Part shown: in pieces, positions 17,693 to 33,459 of the stretch
Layout: each line of letters opens with the position of its first letter
Numbering within the stretch: position 1 is the first letter of the stretch
Source: Solirubrobacteraceae bacterium
GTDB lineage: Bacteria > Actinomycetota > Thermoleophilia > Solirubrobacterales > Solirubrobacteraceae
Reading direction: 5' to 3'
Assembly: GCA_035719985.1 (NCBI GenBank)
Contig: DASTPN010000010.1
Span: 1 to 51,342, forward strand
Length of the DNA: 51,342 nucleotides
Position numbers and translations under genes: made by a program
The notes under the pieces: generated by a model
Databases searched by the model: none
What the model saw: the letters and a program-made list of their open reading frames with translations, nothing else
Told to the model about the DNA's origin: nothing

Positions 17693-19300
17693 TCAGGCGT
17701 AGTAGCGAGCTATGACCTGGAGCTGGCTGAAGACGTCGTGCGAGAGGAACAGGATCACAATCGCCGCCGCAGTCGCCGGCGCCCATCGCCGGCCGGCGCC
17801 ACGGACTGCGAGCGTCAGTATGGCTCCGAGCAACGGCAGCATCGGCAACAAGTAGCGAGGATCGCCATAGGCTTCCACATGGGAGATCACGTCAGAGTCA
17901 TACGAGGCGACCCCAACCATTGCAAACACTCCAACGGTCATGATGATGTACGTGAGAAGCTCCGGCAGACGATCACGCAAGGCGGAGCGCCGACCGAACA
18001 TCTCCCGAAGCGCAAGCAGCAAGATCAGAACCGTCGGCACCAGCGCAACGCGAACAACCCAACCGGGAAATTGCGTGTCTATCCAACCGTAGAGACCCAC
18101 GGATCGAGTGAACCACACGTCCCAGAAAGTGGACATACCCTGGAAGTAGTGCGTCATTCCCGGCAGGTACGGAAGATACAACTGCCATATGTAGCTGAAC
18201 TTGTTAAAGACAGAGCCCTCTACCGTGCCTGCTGCGCTTTCCGAGGCAATCCCGAGAACGGGTTGACTCGACGAGAGATGCAGGAGCACATCGAGCGCCG
18301 CCGGGAGAATCCCGATTCCTGCGGCGATGCCAAATGACGACCACGCGGCCGTACGTTTGAGTCGAACATCTCGTACGCACACAAAGATCAACCCGATAAA
18401 CACACCGGGCGCCAGGCCGGCGAAATTTAGCTTTGTGAGAAAGCCAACCACGATGAGAAGGCCCGTCACGACGGCAAGAGGACGACTGAGGCCACGGCGG
18501 AACGCGCGGGCCAGACAAAGAAACAGACCCGCAGAGACCGCGTAGAGCATGGTGTCGGGATTGAGAGTGCCCGACATGAAACCGAACAGTGGCTGAAGCG
18601 CAACGCACATTGCGCCCGCCGTCGCGGCCCACGGAACACCCGGCAAGAGCTCGCGTAGGAAGAAGAAGATCAGCAGCACCGTCAGGCCCGCCGTCAAGGC
18701 GGCTAGCAGCCTCATCAGCTGCAGCTGCCACAGCACGTTGCCTGAGCCGAGCGCATAGGGAATCGTCTGTATCGCATAGAACAGCGGTGGTTGAGACGCC
18801 GCAACTCCCGCGGCCCCCGACCCGACAGACGAAGCGTTGGCGTCAACGGCGCGCGTGAGCCCTTCTTGCTGAGCGGCAGACGATATTGCCGGCACTTGCG
18901 GTTTCAACCGTATGGCAGCCTGATTTAGTTCGCTCAATACAAGCGACTCCGCGGGAGACTCGGGTTCGGAGCCCGGTCGAGGCAGTTTGCCCGTTTCGGC
19001 GAGTAGCTGGACGTAAGCAAAATGGTCAGGCTCGTCGCGACCCTGAAACGGCGGCGTGATGATTGACCACGCAACCCCGTTGAGAATCGCGATCGATACG
19101 CATGTCCATGCGATTGCCGGGATCCTTGCGAAGATGCTGCGCAGATCGATCGAAGGCCATCGCCAGGCTCGCGCGACCCGGCCGCTAATCGACCGTCCTG
19201 GCATCGAGCGCCTCCCGCCTGCATCCAGGCTCCTGTTGAAGGAGCGTGACCCGACGGCGGCCTTGCCCGACTTAGCGCCCGGGCGACGTGTCTTGGTCAC
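17693..19300 (-). CDS. DUF2142 / GT-C-like polytopic membrane glycosyltransferase, copy 1
   Basis: WSIITPPFQGRDEPDHFAY acidic first loop, PPLFY, LNPDT, TKL, PRYLLP; more than 10 hydrophobic segments; GTG start overlaps the upstream TGA (GTGA). Confidence 0.75.
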   Translation of the reverse strand: MTKTRRPGAKSGKAAVGSRSFNRSLDAGGRRSMPGRSISGRVARAWRWPSIDLRSIFARIPAIAWTCVSIAILNGVAWSIITPPFQGRDEPDHFAYVQLLAETGKLPRPGSEPESPAESLVLSELNQAAIRLKPQVPAISSAAQQEGLTRAVDANASSVGSGAAGVAASQPPLFYAIQTIPYALGSGNVLWQLQLMRLLAALTAGLTVLLIFFFLRELLPGVPWAATAGAMCVALQPLFGFMSGTLNPDTMLYAVSAGLFLCLARAFRRGLSRPLAVVTGLLIVVGFLTKLNFAGLAPGVFIGLIFVCVRDVRLKRTAAWSSFGIAAGIGILPAALDVLLHLSSSQPVLGIASESAAGTVEGSVFNKFSYIWQLYLPYLPGMTHYFQGMSTFWDVWFTRSVGLYGWIDTQFPGWVVRVALVPTVLILLLALREMFGRRSALRDRLPELLTYIIMTVGVFAMVGVASYDSDVISHVEAYGDPRYLLPMLPLLGAILTLAVRGAGRRWAPATAAAIVILFLSHDVFSQLQVIARYYA

Positions 19301-19968
19301 TCGAATCCCCTCCAAACAGCTCGAAGCGACAAACCGCCCACGATGGCCATAAGTCCAAGGACGAGTAGCGAAACCCAAGTTCCGGCCAGCACGTGGCCGA
19401 CCCCGAGGTGACGAGCAACAGAAAGCCCTCGCGACCACCAGGAGCCGTCGCCGTTGGCCAGATATTCGACTGTCAGCCTGCCGCCCAATGCTTGGCCAGA
19501 GCGCGATACCGCCGCTTCACGCGTCGGGGTGTCAAAGCCTATGAGCGCTATCGACTCGCTGTTGGAAGTAACGTCAAAGCAGAGCTTTGCGGGGTACACC
19601 GTCCGATCGACCGGTCTTACTGGGATTGTCACCATGCCCCCGGTCCAATCCGGGGCTCGGCTGCCTTCGGTGATCAGGCGCGAGCGCGAATAGACCTTCA
19701 CATGCACTCGGAACCCAAACGTCGCGTCCAAACCGAGCCGGATCGCCGACGTTCCCGCGGGAAGTGCTTCATTGGCTTGGCATGCTGCGGCACCCTTGGT
19801 CGCCGTGGCGAGTTCCGCCGACTCGGGGGCATTGGCGCGGAGAACCCGAGGGGGCGCACGGCTGAGCGTCCAAGCGCCGACGGCCACCGCGAGTGCGACA
19901 CACGCGATCGTCGCTACCTTCAAACCCTTGACGCCTTCCATCTTTCCCCGAATCACATAAGATTCCAC
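19297..19968 (-). CDS. hypothetical membrane-anchored protein (N- and C-terminal TM, Cys pair), copy 1
   Basis: 223-aa ORF clearly paralogous to 31193..31873 (CQ..E.LPA..SAIR, W....VTIPV.P, KLC, VEYLA....SWWSR..SVARH.G.GH..AGTWV); start uncertain. Confidence 0.8.
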   Translation of the reverse strand: MESYVIRGKMEGVKGLKVATIACVALAVAVGAWTLSRAPPRVLRANAPESAELATATKGAAACQANEALPAGTSAIRLGLDATFGFRVHVKVYSRSRLITEGSRAPDWTGGMVTIPVRPVDRTVYPAKLCFDVTSNSESIALIGFDTPTREAAVSRSGQALGGRLTVEYLANGDGSWWSRGLSVARHLGVGHVLAGTWVSLLVLGLMAIVGGLSLRAVWRGFE

Positions 19969-20146: not shown

Positions 20147-20428
20147 CTATGTCCGTTGGGACGATTCCGGCACGAGCGTCCGATCGGGATACTCAAGCTC
20201 CTCACCGCAGCGCGTGCACAGCGCGTCGTAGGCCGTGGTGAGGCGCCCGCATTTCGGGCAACGTCGATGCGGCTCGTCTCGGTCGAAGCGGTAGGCGATC
20301 GCGGCCAGCAGGCCGAAGATCGGCACCGCTCCGGAGATCAGGAACCACAGCCAGAAGGAGCTCCCCTTGATGCGCCCGACAATGCCGCCGGCGAGAGCGA
20401 AGCAGAAGGCTATGACGACGTAGGCCAC
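20147..20428 (-). CDS. small membrane protein with C-terminal zinc ribbon
   Basis: two hydrophobic helices followed by CPKC-x10-CTRC. Confidence 0.75.
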   Translation of the reverse strand: MAYVVIAFCFALAGGIVGRIKGSSFWLWFLISGAVPIFGLLAAIAYRFDRDEPHRRCPKCGRLTTAYDALCTRCGEELEYPDRTLVPESSQRT

Positions 20429-20447: not shown

Positions 20448-20636
20448 CTAGAACAGCGTGCGCCACGCCCAGATCAGCGCGAGCACTCCGAGGATCAAGA
20501 CGAGCGGGCCTGCGATCGCAAGCGCTATGCCGATGATCACCTTCAGCAGGATGTAGCCGACGACCACCAACACCAGCACCGCCACGACGGTCTTGCCCAG
20601 CGAGCGTGAGGTTTCCCCCTGTGAGGTCTGGTTCAC
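20448..20636 (-). CDS. small hypothetical two-TM membrane protein
   Basis: 62 aa, strongly hydrophobic; TACGCT -10 hexamer 7 nt before GTG. Confidence 0.7.
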   Translation of the reverse strand: MNQTSQGETSRSLGKTVVAVLVLVVVGYILLKVIIGIALAIAGPLVLILGVLALIWAWRTLF

Positions 20637-20683
20637 GACTCAGAGCGTACCGCACCCGCCGGGCGTGACGAGCCGCATTAGCG

Positions 20684-20720
20684 CGCGGCCGGGCAGGCTG
20701 AGAAACCCTGCCCGGCCGCG
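20684..20720. terminator. strong GC hairpin (terminator or 3' stabilising stem)
   Basis: 14-bp perfect inverted repeat CGCGGCCGGGCAGG/CCTGCCCGGCCGCG with a 9-nt loop; no U tract. Confidence 0.6.
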
Positions 20721-20902
20721 TACAGTCACCTCGAGGAGGGGACTCGGGGTGAGGTCTTCCGGTCCAGGCCCTGGGAACGCCCGACGCTGGTGAGGCGATA
20801 GCGACGGATGCGAACACCCTGGCCTGAAACGACCGCCTCTTCCTCGGGCAGGAGGAGAAACCGCCGAGGAGGAGTTATTGAGTTGGAGATCGGCCTGTTC
20901 AT
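20684..20902 (-). ncRNA. candidate structured small RNA with CU-rich loops (overlaps a 58-aa ORF, 20726..20902)
   Basis: three hand-folded hairpins with loops UUUCUCCUC, AUCGCCUCACC and UCCCCUC, then the 14-bp stem; not matched to any known family. Confidence 0.4.
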
Positions 20903-20974
20903 GAGGAGCATGATGCCCACCAAGGTCGTTCTTGCCATTGGACTCTCGTCCAAAATGTGGCGGGGGCGTCTGGA

Positions 20975-22423
<1,449 letters not shown>

Positions 22424-29982: not shown

Positions 29983-31182
29983 GTGGACTGGATGAGTGTC
30001 CACGCCACGCCGATCTCTGCGCCGCCGGCCCAATTCGAGCAACCCACCGTGGCGGAGCCCGTAGTGTCAGTGGTGATTCCGTGCCTGAACGAGGCCGGCA
30101 GCGTTACGCAATGTGTCGAGACCGCGCTGGCCACCTTGACCGAAGCCGACATCCCAGGCGAGGTGATCGTCGTCGACAACGGCTCGACTGACGGCAGTTA
30201 CGAACTCGCCGAGGCGGCCGGAGCCCTCGTCGTACACGAGCCTCGGCGTGGCTACGGCAGCGCATACCTGGCCGGATTCGCCTCGGCATCGGGCACTTAC
30301 GTCGTGATGGCCGACGCCGATATGACCTACGACCTGCGCGAGATACCCCGCTTTCTCGCTGAGCTGCGCGACGGCGCAGACATGGTAATCGGAGATCGGA
30401 TGTCGAAAATACATTTAGGAGCGATGCCGTGGCACCACCGCTACATCGGTAACCCGCTGCTCTCCGGGCTGCTCAACGCCTTCTTCCATGCCGGGGTTCG
30501 CGACGCCCACTGCGGCATGCGCGCCTTCCGCCGCGACCGGCTCGACCAGTTGCAGCTGCGCGCTACCGGCATGGAGTTCGCTTCGGAGATGGTCGTGCGC
30601 GCGACACGCGAGCGGTTGCGGATTCGCCAGGTGGACATCGAGTACCTGCCTCGAGACGGCGAGTCGAAGCTCTCGAGCTTTCGTGATGGCTGGCGCCATC
30701 TGCGTTTCATGCTGCTGCATTCCCCCAGTCATCTCTTCATCCTGCCGGGCGCTGCCGTGGCGACGCTGGGCGCTCTCATCTCAGCGATGGTTCTCGGCCA
30801 GGTGGACATCTTCGGGCGCCAATGGGATCTACATGCGCTGATCGGCGGCGCGCTGCTTCTGATCGTCGGAGCTCAGATTACGAGTCTCGGCCTGTGCGCA
30901 CACGCATACGCGACCTACTTCATGGATTACAGCGAGCGATGGTTCGATCGGTTGCGCGCACGCCTGCGACTCGAGCATGGCCTGATGCTGGGCAGTGCGA
31001 TCACTTGTGTAGGGGTTGCTATCAGCGCCTACATCGCCACGCGCTGGGTGGCGCGCGGTCTCGGCAGCCTCTCCCAGGAGCGTACGGCGATACTTGCCGC
31101 CACCTTGATAGTGCTCGGCTTGCAGGTGATCTTCTCTTCCTTCCTGCTCAGCATCCTCGGTCTACGAAGGGACCGCGCTTGA
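29983..31182 (+). CDS. GT2 glycosyltransferase (DPM1-like, probable polyprenyl-phosphate sugar synthase) with C-terminal TM domain
   Basis: SVVIPCLNE, VVDNGSTD, GYGSA, DAD, DAHCGMRAF, GMEFASEM, GESKL..FRDGWRHL; four C-terminal TM segments. Confidence 0.9.
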   Translation: MDWMSVHATPISAPPAQFEQPTVAEPVVSVVIPCLNEAGSVTQCVETALATLTEADIPGEVIVVDNGSTDGSYELAEAAGALVVHEPRRGYGSAYLAGFASASGTYVVMADADMTYDLREIPRFLAELRDGADMVIGDRMSKIHLGAMPWHHRYIGNPLLSGLLNAFFHAGVRDAHCGMRAFRRDRLDQLQLRATGMEFASEMVVRATRERLRIRQVDIEYLPRDGESKLSSFRDGWRHLRFMLLHSPSHLFILPGAAVATLGALISAMVLGQVDIFGRQWDLHALIGGALLLIVGAQITSLGLCAHAYATYFMDYSERWFDRLRARLRLEHGLMLGSAITCVGVAISAYIATRWVARGLGSLSQERTAILAATLIVLGLQVIFSSFLLSILGLRRDRA

Positions 31183-31192
31183 CAGGCACAAC

Positions 31193-31873
31193 GTGTCGCC
31201 GGCGCCGGCACGAACGCCGACTGCGCGCCGACCGATGATTGCCGCCCGTACAGCGTTGGCGCTCAGCGTTGCGACGATGCTCGTCCTGATCGCTGTCACG
31301 CTGACCAGATCGCCCGTGCGCGTCGTCCGCGTCGGGGAGCCGAGGCCATTGAAAACTCTCGGCTCCACGACTGGCCCAATCAGCGTATGCCAGGAAGGTG
31401 AAACCCTGCCGGCGAAGGTTTCTGCGATCAGGGCGGGCCTGGAAGGATCACTCGGCCCGCCGGTCTTGTTGCGAGCCTTCGCTGGTGGACGCATTGTCGC
31501 CGAAGGAAGCAGGAGCGGCAATTGGACCGACGACACGGTCACGATACCCGTAAAGCCTCTGAGCGCAGGCGCTCACTCCGTCAAGCTCTGCCTGTACGTC
31601 CGACACAACGACGAGTTACTTCAGCTCTACGGCGCTGCCAGCGGGTCACATCTTGCTGCCTACTCAGCTGGCGGACAGAGACTTCCAGGCCGCTTCAGCG
31701 TTGAATACCTCGCCTCTGACGGCAACTCGTGGTGGTCACGGGTAGTTTCGGTGGCACGACACGTCGGGATCGGTCATGCATTTGCCGGGACCTGGGTCGC
31801 GCTCTTGCTTGCCATGCTGGTGGCGGCGCTCGCCAGCTTGCTCGTGGGTCTCGCCTGGAAGGAACTACCGTGA
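31193..31873 (+). CDS. hypothetical membrane-anchored protein (N- and C-terminal TM, Cys pair), copy 2
   Basis: paralog of 19297..19968; starts 10 bp after the GT2 stop. Confidence 0.8.
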   Translation: MSPAPARTPTARRPMIAARTALALSVATMLVLIAVTLTRSPVRVVRVGEPRPLKTLGSTTGPISVCQEGETLPAKVSAIRAGLEGSLGPPVLLRAFAGGRIVAEGSRSGNWTDDTVTIPVKPLSAGAHSVKLCLYVRHNDELLQLYGAASGSHLAAYSAGGQRLPGRFSVEYLASDGNSWWSRVVSVARHVGIGHAFAGTWVALLLAMLVAALASLLVGLAWKELP

Positions 31874-33459
31874 GCTCCAGACGAGACCTGCGCGACGATC
31901 GCTCGTCGGTCGGATCGCGCGCCTTTCGAAGACAGAGGCGACAGGCACGCGCGCGTCGGCAACGGCGTGCGATGACGCGCATGCAAGCACGGATGCGCGC
32001 GGCGCCCAGGACGAACATACGTGCACTGTTGCGAGGCATACCGGCGGCAGCCTGGATTTGCGCTCTGGTGGCGCTACTCAACGGCGTAGCGTGGTCGATC
32101 ATCACACCGCCGTTTCAGGGTCGCGACGAGCCATCTCACTTCGCCTACGTGCAACAGCTCGCCGAGACGGGTACGTTGCCGCACGAAGTCGCCGAAGGCG
32201 GTGGCCCCTCCCCGCGGGAGAACAAGGCTATTGAAGGGCTTCACCAATATGAAATCATGCTGGCACCAGAGGTACCGGCGATATCTTCGGTCAGCGAGCA
32301 ACGCGCCCTGAAGAACGACCTGAGCGAAGAACTCTCGCCAGTGGGGTCCGGTGAAGCCGGCGTCGCCACATCAGAGCCGCCCCTCTACTACGCGCTCGAG
32401 ATTGTCCCTTACGCGCTGGGCGCCGGCAATACCCTCACACAACTTCAGCTGATGCGGCTCGCGGGGGCGGTACTGGCCGCACTGACCACACTCCTGGCGT
32501 TCTTCTTCCTGCGCGAGCTGCTTCCCGGCTCACCCTGGATGACAACGATCGCGACCGGCTGCATCGCCGTGCAGCCACTGTTCGGGTTCATGTCTGGAAC
32601 GCTCAATCCAGACACGATGCTCTATACCGTCTCGGCCGCCGTTCTGCTCTGTCTGGCGCGAGCCTTTCGCCGTGGGCTCAGCATGCGTCTGTCAATCGCA
32701 CTTGGCGCCGCGATTGCAATCGGTCTTGTGACCAAGCTCAACTTCATCGGTCTCTGCGCGGGCATTTTCCTCGGCCTGAGCTTGATCGGCATACGCGAAG
32801 TCCGATCTCACGGGCGCGAAGCGCTCAAGCCGATCGGTGCGGCAACGGGCATCGGCCTCTCTCCCGTCCTGCTGTACGCCGTGTTCAGTGGAGGCAGCCT
32901 CTTCTCCTCGATCGGCGACGTCATAACTTTCAACAATGGAGGGTTCTTCAAAGAGGTCAGCTACGCGTGGCAGCTGTACCTTCCGCGCCTGCCTGGAATG
33001 TCACACTACTTCCCCGGTATCGAAACCTACCGCGAGATTTGGTTCGATCGTTTCGTTGGCCTGTACGGCTGGTTGGACACACAATTCCCCACCTGGGTCG
33101 ACAATCTGGCGCTGATCCCGGCGGGGTTGATAGCGGTGCTCTGCCTCAGAACATTGGTCGTCGGTCGCGAGAGGCTGCGAAGCCGCCTTCCTGAGATTGC
33201 AACCTACGCGCTGCTCCTCATCGGGCTGCTCGTGATGGTCGGCCATTCGGCTTTCTCGAGTTATCTATCCAGCGGAGCGGCAGCATTCGGTGATCCACGC
33301 TACCTGCTGCCCGTCCTGCCTCTGCTCGCGGCCATTCTGGTACTGGCCATACGCGGTGCAGGCAGATGGGCACCTCCCGTTGCGGCCGTCATCTTGGTCA
33401 CGTTCTTGGCACACGACCTTTTCAGTCAGATGCAAACGATTGCCCGCTATTACGGGTAG
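31870..33459 (+). CDS. DUF2142 / GT-C-like polytopic membrane glycosyltransferase, copy 2
   Basis: WSIITPPFQGRDEPSHFAY, PPLYY, LNPDT, TKL, GDPRYLLP, IARYY end; GTG start overlaps the upstream TGA (GTGA). Confidence 0.75.
   Translation: MSSRRDLRDDRSSVGSRAFRRQRRQARARRQRRAMTRMQARMRAAPRTNIRALLRGIPAAAWICALVALLNGVAWSIITPPFQGRDEPSHFAYVQQLAETGTLPHEVAEGGGPSPRENKAIEGLHQYEIMLAPEVPAISSVSEQRALKNDLSEELSPVGSGEAGVATSEPPLYYALEIVPYALGAGNTLTQLQLMRLAGAVLAALTTLLAFFFLRELLPGSPWMTTIATGCIAVQPLFGFMSGTLNPDTMLYTVSAAVLLCLARAFRRGLSMRLSIALGAAIAIGLVTKLNFIGLCAGIFLGLSLIGIREVRSHGREALKPIGAATGIGLSPVLLYAVFSGGSLFSSIGDVITFNNGGFFKEVSYAWQLYLPRLPGMSHYFPGIETYREIWFDRFVGLYGWLDTQFPTWVDNLALIPAGLIAVLCLRTLVVGRERLRSRLPEIATYALLLIGLLVMVGHSAFSSYLSSGAAAFGDPRYLLPVLPLLAAILVLAIRGAGRWAPPVAAVILVTFLAHDLFSQMQTIARYYG

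Follow-up and report, generated by a model that had tools for sequence, protein, structure and literature searches.

The locus downstream of gatB

The window, that is, the whole 51,342-nt stretch of Solirubrobacteraceae DNA that was analysed, carries on its minus strand a compact element located between gatB, which ends at 20975, and the gene for a 62-aa membrane protein, followed in turn by a zinc-ribbon protein gene; the upstream neighbours were verified as gatA and gatB. The element was originally predicted to be a small RNA. One promoter lies upstream of its open reading frame (ORF) and one terminal stem downstream, and the following features can be distinguished:

20938..20953, minus strand: palindromic operator TTGGAC-N4-GTCCAA, likely an activator site, centred at -43.5 assuming that transcription starts at the ATG
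20910..20915, minus strand: -10 CATCAT (family form CANNAT), 22 nt 3' of the operator and 7 nt 5' of the start codon
20726..20902, minus strand: gene for a small basic protein (58 aa plus TGA) with the motifs RRF(L/I)LLP and R(I/V)RRYxL
20837..20874, minus strand: hairpin 1 (loop UUUCUCCUC), within the ORF; inner pairs frequently retained, without covariation
20760..20835, minus strand: interrupted hairpin 2 with loop AUCGCCUCACC, inside the ORF; unsupported as a conserved RNA structure
20726..20752, minus strand: hairpin 3 with loop UCCCCUC (20742-20736), a conserved candidate seed; covariation
20684..20720, minus strand: terminal 14-bp G+C stem, a predicted transcription terminator; covariation
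20644..20649, minus strand: -10 TACGCT, read from the sequence, 7 nt 5' of the GTG start of the 62-aa membrane-protein gene downstream and likely the end of the unit

The 62-aa membrane protein (20448-20636, minus strand) and the 93-aa membrane/zinc-ribbon protein (20147-20428, minus strand) are encoded in synteny with the small ORF throughout the family, with a leaderless-type -10 of their own. Elsewhere in the window, a gene for a DUF2142/PMT_2-like membrane glycosyltransferase (17693-19968) is surrounded by a stretch of visibly lower G+C, and a second such gene, assigned by sequence likeness alone, is found at 30073-33459.

The small-protein gene

Comparative sequence analysis indicates that the 5' two-thirds of the element is a protein gene. 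The 58-aa basic ORF at 20902-20726, which the original prediction had noted within the same span, is indeed present. A nucleotide search matched 20 of 36 same-genus genomes and none of 24 others, and the 21 aligned ORF copies share a fixed ATG start and 13 invariant residues, of which 12 are encoded by synonymous codons, the remaining one being the ATG. These copies give a dN/dS of ~0.12 in both motifs, as compared to 0.29 when the first 47 columns are taken together. An ORF profile identified the gene in 187 of 250 other genomes of the genus, nearly always in a single copy, and a broader profile matched 89 of 150 genomes within the family, covering 31 of 38 genera at E <= 0.05, with the weakest matches possibly due to chance because this threshold is loose. 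The narrow profile (A1) had suggested a genus-only protein, a reading overturned by the family-wide matches of the broader one (A7). In 24 of the 25 best other-genus loci, the ORF is located beside gatB or beside the membrane and zinc-ribbon genes, and all 80 named loci with a relative of the ORF belong to Solirubrobacteraceae or Solirubrobacterales. A class-level match (L110) proved false, falling inside an ABC permease.

Members of the protein family are 48-78 aa long, and many of the relatives close with a third motif, F.HL.R.YD, which is absent from the copy in the source genome. Searches of Pfam, NCBIfam and PDB gave no sequence match to the small protein, and the Atlas gave no usable one. 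In the AlphaFold model (pLDDT 65), short strands span residues 14-19 and 35-40 and the chain is otherwise largely uncertain, so the protein is predicted to comprise two beta strands; Foldseek returned no match for this low-confidence model.

Promoter and operator

The most conserved feature of the promoter, overlooked in the original prediction, is the palindrome at 20953-20938. In 149 of 150 distinct loci of the genus, the pattern TTGGMC-N4-GKCCAA is followed at exactly 22 nt by a -10 of the form xAxxxT, with C in the first position in 140, and an ATG or GTG follows 6-8 nt 3' of the -10 in 138 of the 150. The strict form, TTTTGGAC-N4-GKCCAA, was found in 196 of 250 other genus genomes, mostly once, as compared to a single match for the reversed control. 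A looser form matched 37 of 150 family genomes, and the loose motif showed no genome-wide enrichment (20 matches versus 16 for the reversed motif).

The promoter sequences proposed at the outset, TGGCAA at 20937-20932 and CATCAT at 20915-20910, 7 nt before the ATG at 20902, are in place, and the start at this ATG is predicted to be leaderless. The accompanying view that the genome is rich in leaderless mRNAs holds to the extent that 342 of 1969 called genes scored as such versus 39 in a shifted control, a count that is inflated because the gene caller favoured such starts. Compared with NtcA sites, the motif of the operator differs from GTAN8TAC and its position is similar; we infer activation because the placement at -43.5 resembles that of NtcA sites near -41.5, and by this analogy the palindrome is likely an activator site. 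The promoter would function in the manner of an NtcA-type class II nitrogen promoter without belonging to that type.

A conserved RNA module at the 3' end

The 3' third of the element is, as judged from sequence covariation, a conserved RNA module found only in the source genus among the family genomes searched. In most copies from the genus, the stop codon is followed by a hairpin with a YYCCCUC loop and then by a long G+C stem. The loop occurs in two subtypes, A (UCCCCUC) and B (UUCCCUC plus a purine), and UCCCCUC or UUCCCUC is present in 112 of the 129 loci with a called loop. Hairpin 3 belongs to the 3' UTR in most relatives and overlaps the end of the ORF in the source genome, in which a ~100-nt deletion, visible in the alignment, fused the ORF into the hairpin. 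An early-branching group of the genus (L161, L162 and L172) has the same operator, a diverged 36-37-aa ORF and altered hairpins with the loop CUCCCUC.

Two-sided changes were observed in 7 of 10 pairs of hairpin 3 in subtype A (93.6% paired) and in 3 of 6 pairs in subtype B (87.4% paired), as well as in 9 of 14 pairs of the terminal stem over 65 sequences (7 of 15 in each subtype). For the whole module this amounts to 14 of 25 pairs among 28 subtype-A sequences and 10 of 21 among 37 subtype-B sequences, values reached in 0 of 500 shuffles, although such controls are generous because the structures were drawn from the same sequences and kin are not independent. The minus strand is favoured both by the G-U pairs of the terminal stem and by an RNA model (R1) built from subtype B sequences, which scored 47.3 bits on the minus strand of 20683-20752 versus 34.2 bits on the plus strand. 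The window locus is the only significant R1 match in the source genome; 116 family genomes outside the genus yielded no match under strict filters, and 30 other-genus ORF loci, scored without filters, did not exceed 17.2 bits.

The terminal stem is highly stable (-34.4 kcal/mol), and its sequence is conserved beyond the needs of pairing alone. This surplus conservation, together with the ability of the C-rich loop, by inspection, to pair with the G-rich 5' arm of the terminal stem, would fit a module that functions without pairing in trans, either as a protein decoy or as a cis switch between loop-paired and terminator folds controlling read-through into the membrane and zinc-ribbon genes, which the small gene precedes throughout the family. 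However, the downstream gene has its own leaderless-spaced -10 and, in loci missing the element, remains after gatB together with this -10, and the stability of the stem also speaks against a switch. We consider a decoy or cis switch distinctly unlikely.

Hairpins 1 and 2 and the non-coding reading

All of the structures drawn by hand in the original prediction can be formed, from hairpin 1 (loop UUUCUCCUC) and the interrupted hairpin 2 (loop AUCGCCUCACC) to hairpin 3 (loop UCCCCUC) and the 14-bp terminal stem. On this basis the element was proposed to be a non-coding RNA with three CU-rich, anti-Shine-Dalgarno (SD) loops, akin to cuckoo or 6C RNA. The CU-rich loops do fold in the source genome, and hairpin 1 frequently retains its inner pairs. 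Folding of 20684-20935 is better than that of shuffled sequences (z -3.95, 1 of 200 shuffles as good), but the plus strand behaves likewise (z -3.83). The signal is concentrated at the 3' end, with z -6.06 for 20759-20684 (0 of 300 shuffles as good) versus z -1.74 for the coding part, 20902-20760 (18 of 300).

Hairpins 1 and 2 sit in codons under selection for protein, and their covariation does not exceed that of shuffles. In hairpin 1, 83% of cells are paired, with no excess of two-sided changes; in hairpin 2 the figure is 78%, with the outer pairs mostly broken. Together they contain 7 pairs with two-sided change as compared to a shuffled mean of 6.3, and 226 of 500 shuffles scored as high. 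Of 58 hairpin-bearing loci, 23 have all six core pairs of hairpin 1 intact, as compared to none of 15 ORF-only loci, a retention that may reflect secondary RNA constraint or shared ancestry. The anti-SD loops differ in detail from the original prediction. CUCCUC occurs four times between 20902 and 20684 (at 20874, 20871, 20857 and 20738), not three, and only the copy at 20857 is wholly within a loop; the loop of hairpin 2 contains none, and the copy in hairpin 3 extends into the stem. The conserved loop YYCCCUC is complementary to GAGGG(G/A)A and not to GAGGAG.

Rfam, consultation of which had been recommended, gave no match at gathering score in the window or in four related loci, and the eight sub-threshold matches were all far below the cut-off. 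Codon-type conservation had been named beforehand as evidence against a non-coding RNA, and it is what we observed (dN/dS 0.12 in the ORF motifs, hairpins 1 and 2 lacking covariation). A purely non-coding RNA is accordingly highly improbable. The fallback offered in the original prediction, a coding or dual-function element, is the one favoured by the data: the ORF is conserved at the codon level and only the 3' hairpins are conserved as RNA.

Distribution of the two halves and their probable order of origin

We sorted 151 complete, hand-picked loci by regular expressions, leaving aside 6 incomplete ones; the resulting counts are not frequency estimates. Both halves were present in 109 loci, 20 contained the ORF without the RNA and 16 the RNA without the ORF, with the remainder consisting of 4 ORFs followed by the stem only and 2 partial ORFs. 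On inspection, the RNA was present in two loci sorted as lacking it (L113 and L125). The 16 RNA-only loci comprise 11 clean deletions, 2 partial deletions, 2 diverged ORFs and 1 remaining locus. The 11 clean alleles, 76-107 nt in length, are missing the ORF and have kept the operator, loop and stems, and the ten RNA-only alleles examined all retain a spacing of exactly 22 nt between the operator and the -10. The ORF was not found elsewhere in the 9 of the 11 RNA-only genomes that were searched (80-94% complete), whereas it was recovered from a control genome.

Mapped onto an 83-row gatB tree, the RNA-only state takes 8 changes, at least 6 of them forced by supported branches, although this number overstates the independent losses because five RNA-only loci that are interleaved with intact loci on the tree have one common junction; at least 4 distinct deletion junctions can be recognized by eye. 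Three old RNA-only lineages form one clade with 100/100 support and end branches of 0.11-0.13.

The converse state is represented, among others, by copies that have moved next to dut, in which the operator and ORF are kept, the hairpins are missing and R1 has no match. In four genomes with a dut-linked copy the element is gone from the gatB locus, and one genome (G022) has both copies. In 4 of 5 ORF-only genomes R1 matched nothing anywhere, and the fifth yielded a 33-bit match resembling the terminal stem. Some complete genomes of the genus (G250 and G008) have neither half at gatB. In L013, four tandem copies of a ~21-22-nt repeat follow the ORF stop where the hairpin module is missing; short repeats, imperfect in L263, also follow the stop in L263 and L338, which likewise lack the module.

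The three states, viewed together with the outgroup genera, indicate that the ORF is the older half. The ORF and operator would thus be family-wide and ancestral, with the RNA module gained in the genus, where several later deletions removed the ORF and spared the RNA. The same pattern could be produced by an ordinary small-protein mRNA of a nitrogen regulon, the hairpins of which only end and stabilise the transcript, with the RNA-only alleles being relics of deletion. Other genera and the dut-linked copies do manage without the hairpins, partial ORF deletions exist (L167, L173 and L174), and a conserved target was not found among gltA, argB and glnN (see below). Yet a terminator has no need of a conserved loop on a second hairpin, and the RNA-only alleles retain the operator, the 22-nt spacing, the loop and the pairing across a gatB divergence of 0.11-0.13 per site. 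We regard an ordinary mRNA as rather unlikely.

The reading that we prefer, with a probability of roughly 60%, is that the element specifies a nitrogen-activated, leaderless dual-function RNA, in which an older small-protein mRNA acquired the RNA half. Two sets of observations bear on its dual nature: the ORF behaves as a real gene (dN/dS 0.12, synonymous variation, family-wide presence), and the RNA is conserved independently of the ORF (covariation, 11 ORF-less loci).

Association of the operator with nitrogen genes

When the whole source genome was scanned with an operator position weight matrix (PWM) trained with glnA sites, excluding the glnN sites and the genome's own amt and element sites, the five best matches were those at glnA, glnN, a site on contig C165, the small-ORF element and the ammonium transporter gene amt. 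The C165 site (G000 C165:1346-1361), third-best in the genome, adjoins a 68-aa ORF near the parB and dnaA region. Sites of the form TT(G/A)GMC-N4-GKC(C/G)A(A/T) precede glnA, glnN and amt at C150:9986-10001, C170:7-22 and C143:9343-9358 of G000 and in loci L363-L391 and L424-L451. Within the genus, 26 of 27 parsed glnA loci (2 could not be parsed) have a variant operator upstream of glnA at the same spacing, and the operator is upstream of glnN in 27 of 28, the exception standing behind a second glnA. The glnA gene behind the operator is of leaderless type in the genus. Nearly all of the 30 genus genomes searched contain glnA, and nearly all contain glnN. PII was not found in any of five genus genomes searched (G000, G406, G433, G377 and G029; 91-100% complete), despite the ammonium transporter of the source genome and in contrast to other genera, in which amtB-glnK is present.

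Among 50 operator sites inspected across the family, 6 lie upstream of the small ORF, 18 have nitrogen-type neighbours and 26 have unrelated or unclear ones. The nitrogen-type neighbours encode or comprise glnA, amt, PII, urea/nitrate-type uptake systems, urea-amidolyase proteins, amino-acid permeases, S51 peptidases and CP-ATP-grasp proteins, the last two presumably having a role in nitrogen metabolism. Because its motif adjoins nitrogen genes, we call the element nitrogen-activated, and the sequence shared by glnA, glnN and amt is apparently an undescribed nitrogen operator.

The operator of a dual-function transcript might instead report energy status, growth phase or a repressive signal. 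Its sites are also followed by genes unrelated to nitrogen, namely those for a potassium channel, HAD hydrolases, oxidoreductases and a multicopper oxidase, and the regulator was not found among the LexA, CRP and PucR-type candidates examined. Against this, glnA, glnN and amt account for three of the five best sites in the genome, and across genera the operator repeatedly adjoins PII, glnA and genes for urea, nitrate-type and amino-acid uptake. A signal other than nitrogen limitation thus appears quite improbable, and nitrogen remains the favoured input. In four genomes of the genus (L181, L183, L187 and L188) the operator is also found upstream of a TrkA-domain potassium channel gene.

Several candidate regulators were set aside. 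The actinobacterial LexA box, in the form that we take to be canonical, differs from the palindrome and occurs elsewhere in the genome, including before a lexA-like start; in G000 such boxes lie on C6, C8, C9, C56, C112, C118, C128 and C174, with the lexA-like start on C9. The single clear CRP protein was discarded because its recognition helix looks canonical, by our own presumption. A resemblance of the operator to DosR-like motifs, likewise presumed, was dropped, the sites having mapped to nitrogen genes. A PucR/CdaR-type regulator is encoded directly after amtB-glnK in genome G590 (L293:6774-8012, minus strand); it has close orthologues in many genera of the family and none in the source genus, which contains only distant paralogues, and in 4 of 6 genomes from the motif-rich genus g131 a search for it gave nothing at E <= 1e-30. 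Further putative regulators listed include ten of LuxR type and three of GntR type.

Search for mRNA targets

Candidate targets of the loop were ranked over 1969 home-made gene calls, with one genome scanned whole; a plain duplex ranking that disregarded accessibility was not informative. Among gltA, argB and glnN, none emerged as a conserved mRNA target. The candidate site in gltA was rejected as unique to the source genome, and glnN was a weak candidate, ranking 443 of 1969. With accessibility counted, argB ranks 8 of 1969, and its GAGGGG is present in 4 of 10 subtype-A genomes versus 1 of 18 readable others, subtype having been assigned partly by ORF kinship; argB is thus a weak candidate for a target of the loop.

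Relation to known RNAs

The comparisons below draw on excerpts of the cited papers. Nitrogen limitation induces sRNA154 of Methanosarcina mazei, which contains a conserved leaderless ORF and pairs with mRNAs, including by masking of a ribosome-binding site (PMC12612679). The element resembles it in combining a predicted leaderless ORF, proposed mRNA pairing and a putative link to nitrogen, whereas sRNA154 comes from an archaeon, its ORF encodes 20 aa and its targets are known, and the element has a protein of 48-78 aa and an RNA module appended at the 3' end. In Vibrio cholerae, VcdRP is a CRP-repressed carbon regulator, the 29-aa protein of which binds citrate synthase (PMC8672173). As in the element, the ORF comes first and a short C-rich seed lies near the 3' end before the terminator, and a global metabolic regulator acts via a site upstream of the -35 (PMC8672173); the two differ in that VcdRP is linked to carbon and the element to nitrogen, with presumed activation. 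No search that we made detected homology of the element to sRNA154 or VcdRP.

Unequal conservation of the two halves is described for SgrS/SgrT and SR1/SR1P, with some SgrS homologues lacking sgrT (PMC12612679); what sets the element apart in the excerpted accounts is the occurrence of three states under one promoter, with outgroups that point to the earlier half. Cuckoo (alpha-r14) RNAs contain 2-4 adjacent hairpins, each with a CCUCCUCCC loop (PMC4615179). They have a CU-rich loop seed in common with the element, which, in place of 2-4 CCUCCUCCC hairpins, has one conserved YYCCCUC loop and an ORF; the Rfam ar14 model scored 15.3 bits on it against a cut-off of 58.8. NfeR1, one of the alpha-r14 RNAs, is induced by nitrogen stress and pairs at a translation initiation region (PMC10746234). 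The 6C RNA of Actinobacteria pairs with mRNAs through C-rich loops without an RNA chaperone (PMC6486639), and such chaperone-free pairing in high-G+C Gram-positive hosts makes the proposed loop mechanism plausible. The element differs from 6C RNA, as portrayed in that excerpt, in having one conserved loop plus a coding region, and the Rfam 6C model was absent at gathering score and even at E <= 10.

Small RNAs of nitrogen regulons include GlnZ, derived from the 3' UTR of glnA (PMC9731577), which belongs to a different phylum and differs in regulator and motif, and NsiR4, the NtcA site of which, at about -41.5, resembles the operator in position (PMC5714215). NsiR4 likewise differs in phylum, regulator and motif, and no comparable ORF is seen in the part of its description at hand (PMC5714215). 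In open-licence PubMed Central and bioRxiv text, no description of the RNA, the protein or the operator was found. We conclude that the element is probably undescribed and probably belongs to the class of dual-function RNAs. In the searched text of a 2025 review of this class, the words 'Actinobacteria' and 'Streptomyces' never occur, and the question of which function arose first in dual-function RNAs is called open (PMC12612679).

Proposed mode of action and implications

Under the dual-function reading, a transcript of ~220 nt would be switched on alongside the glutamine synthetase genes when nitrogen is short, by an activator that binds the palindrome at -43.5 and aids the weak CANNAT -10. 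The ribosome would start at the first nucleotide of the transcript, and the stem at 20720-20684 would terminate the RNA. The YYCCCUC loop may pair with G-rich ribosome-binding regions of other mRNAs, as suggested by the conservation of the loop and the precedent of 6C RNA. It would repress leadered mRNAs, most likely those of functions that spend nitrogen or drain carbon skeletons, argB being a weak candidate, and leaderless glnA would escape, having no SD to block.

The basic protein, in turn, may be a two-strand binding peptide acting on a protein of nitrogen metabolism. Our guesses for its partner are the glutamine synthetases or GatCAB, a glutamine consumer encoded by the usual neighbour of the element, gatCAB. 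PII was set aside as a partner, having gone undetected in the five genus genomes searched. Such a protein would be reminiscent of IF7/IF17 and sP26, small nitrogen-regulated proteins acting on glutamine synthetase; sP26 of M. mazei reportedly enhances the activity of this enzyme. No kinship to a glutamine synthetase-binding family was detected, with 0 of 66 members of the small-protein family matching Pfam or NCBIfam at E <= 0.01. More tentatively, and with somewhat less than even odds, the parts could form a whole nitrogen-control module, consisting of a new operator and its regulator, a family-wide protein that tunes glutamine synthesis in a genus in which PII was not found, and a small RNA born from a 3' UTR and freed by ORF deletions.

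The operator motif offers a direct handle for capture of the regulator, and a minimal construct for work on the loop is at hand in the 76-nt ORF-less allele. Known dual-function RNAs are few. In Solirubrobacteraceae, loci with both halves, with the ORF only and with the RNA only all occur under one promoter and, if the more tentative reading of a whole module is correct, would provide a direct comparative record of the passage from an mRNA to a dual-function RNA and on to a stand-alone small RNA.
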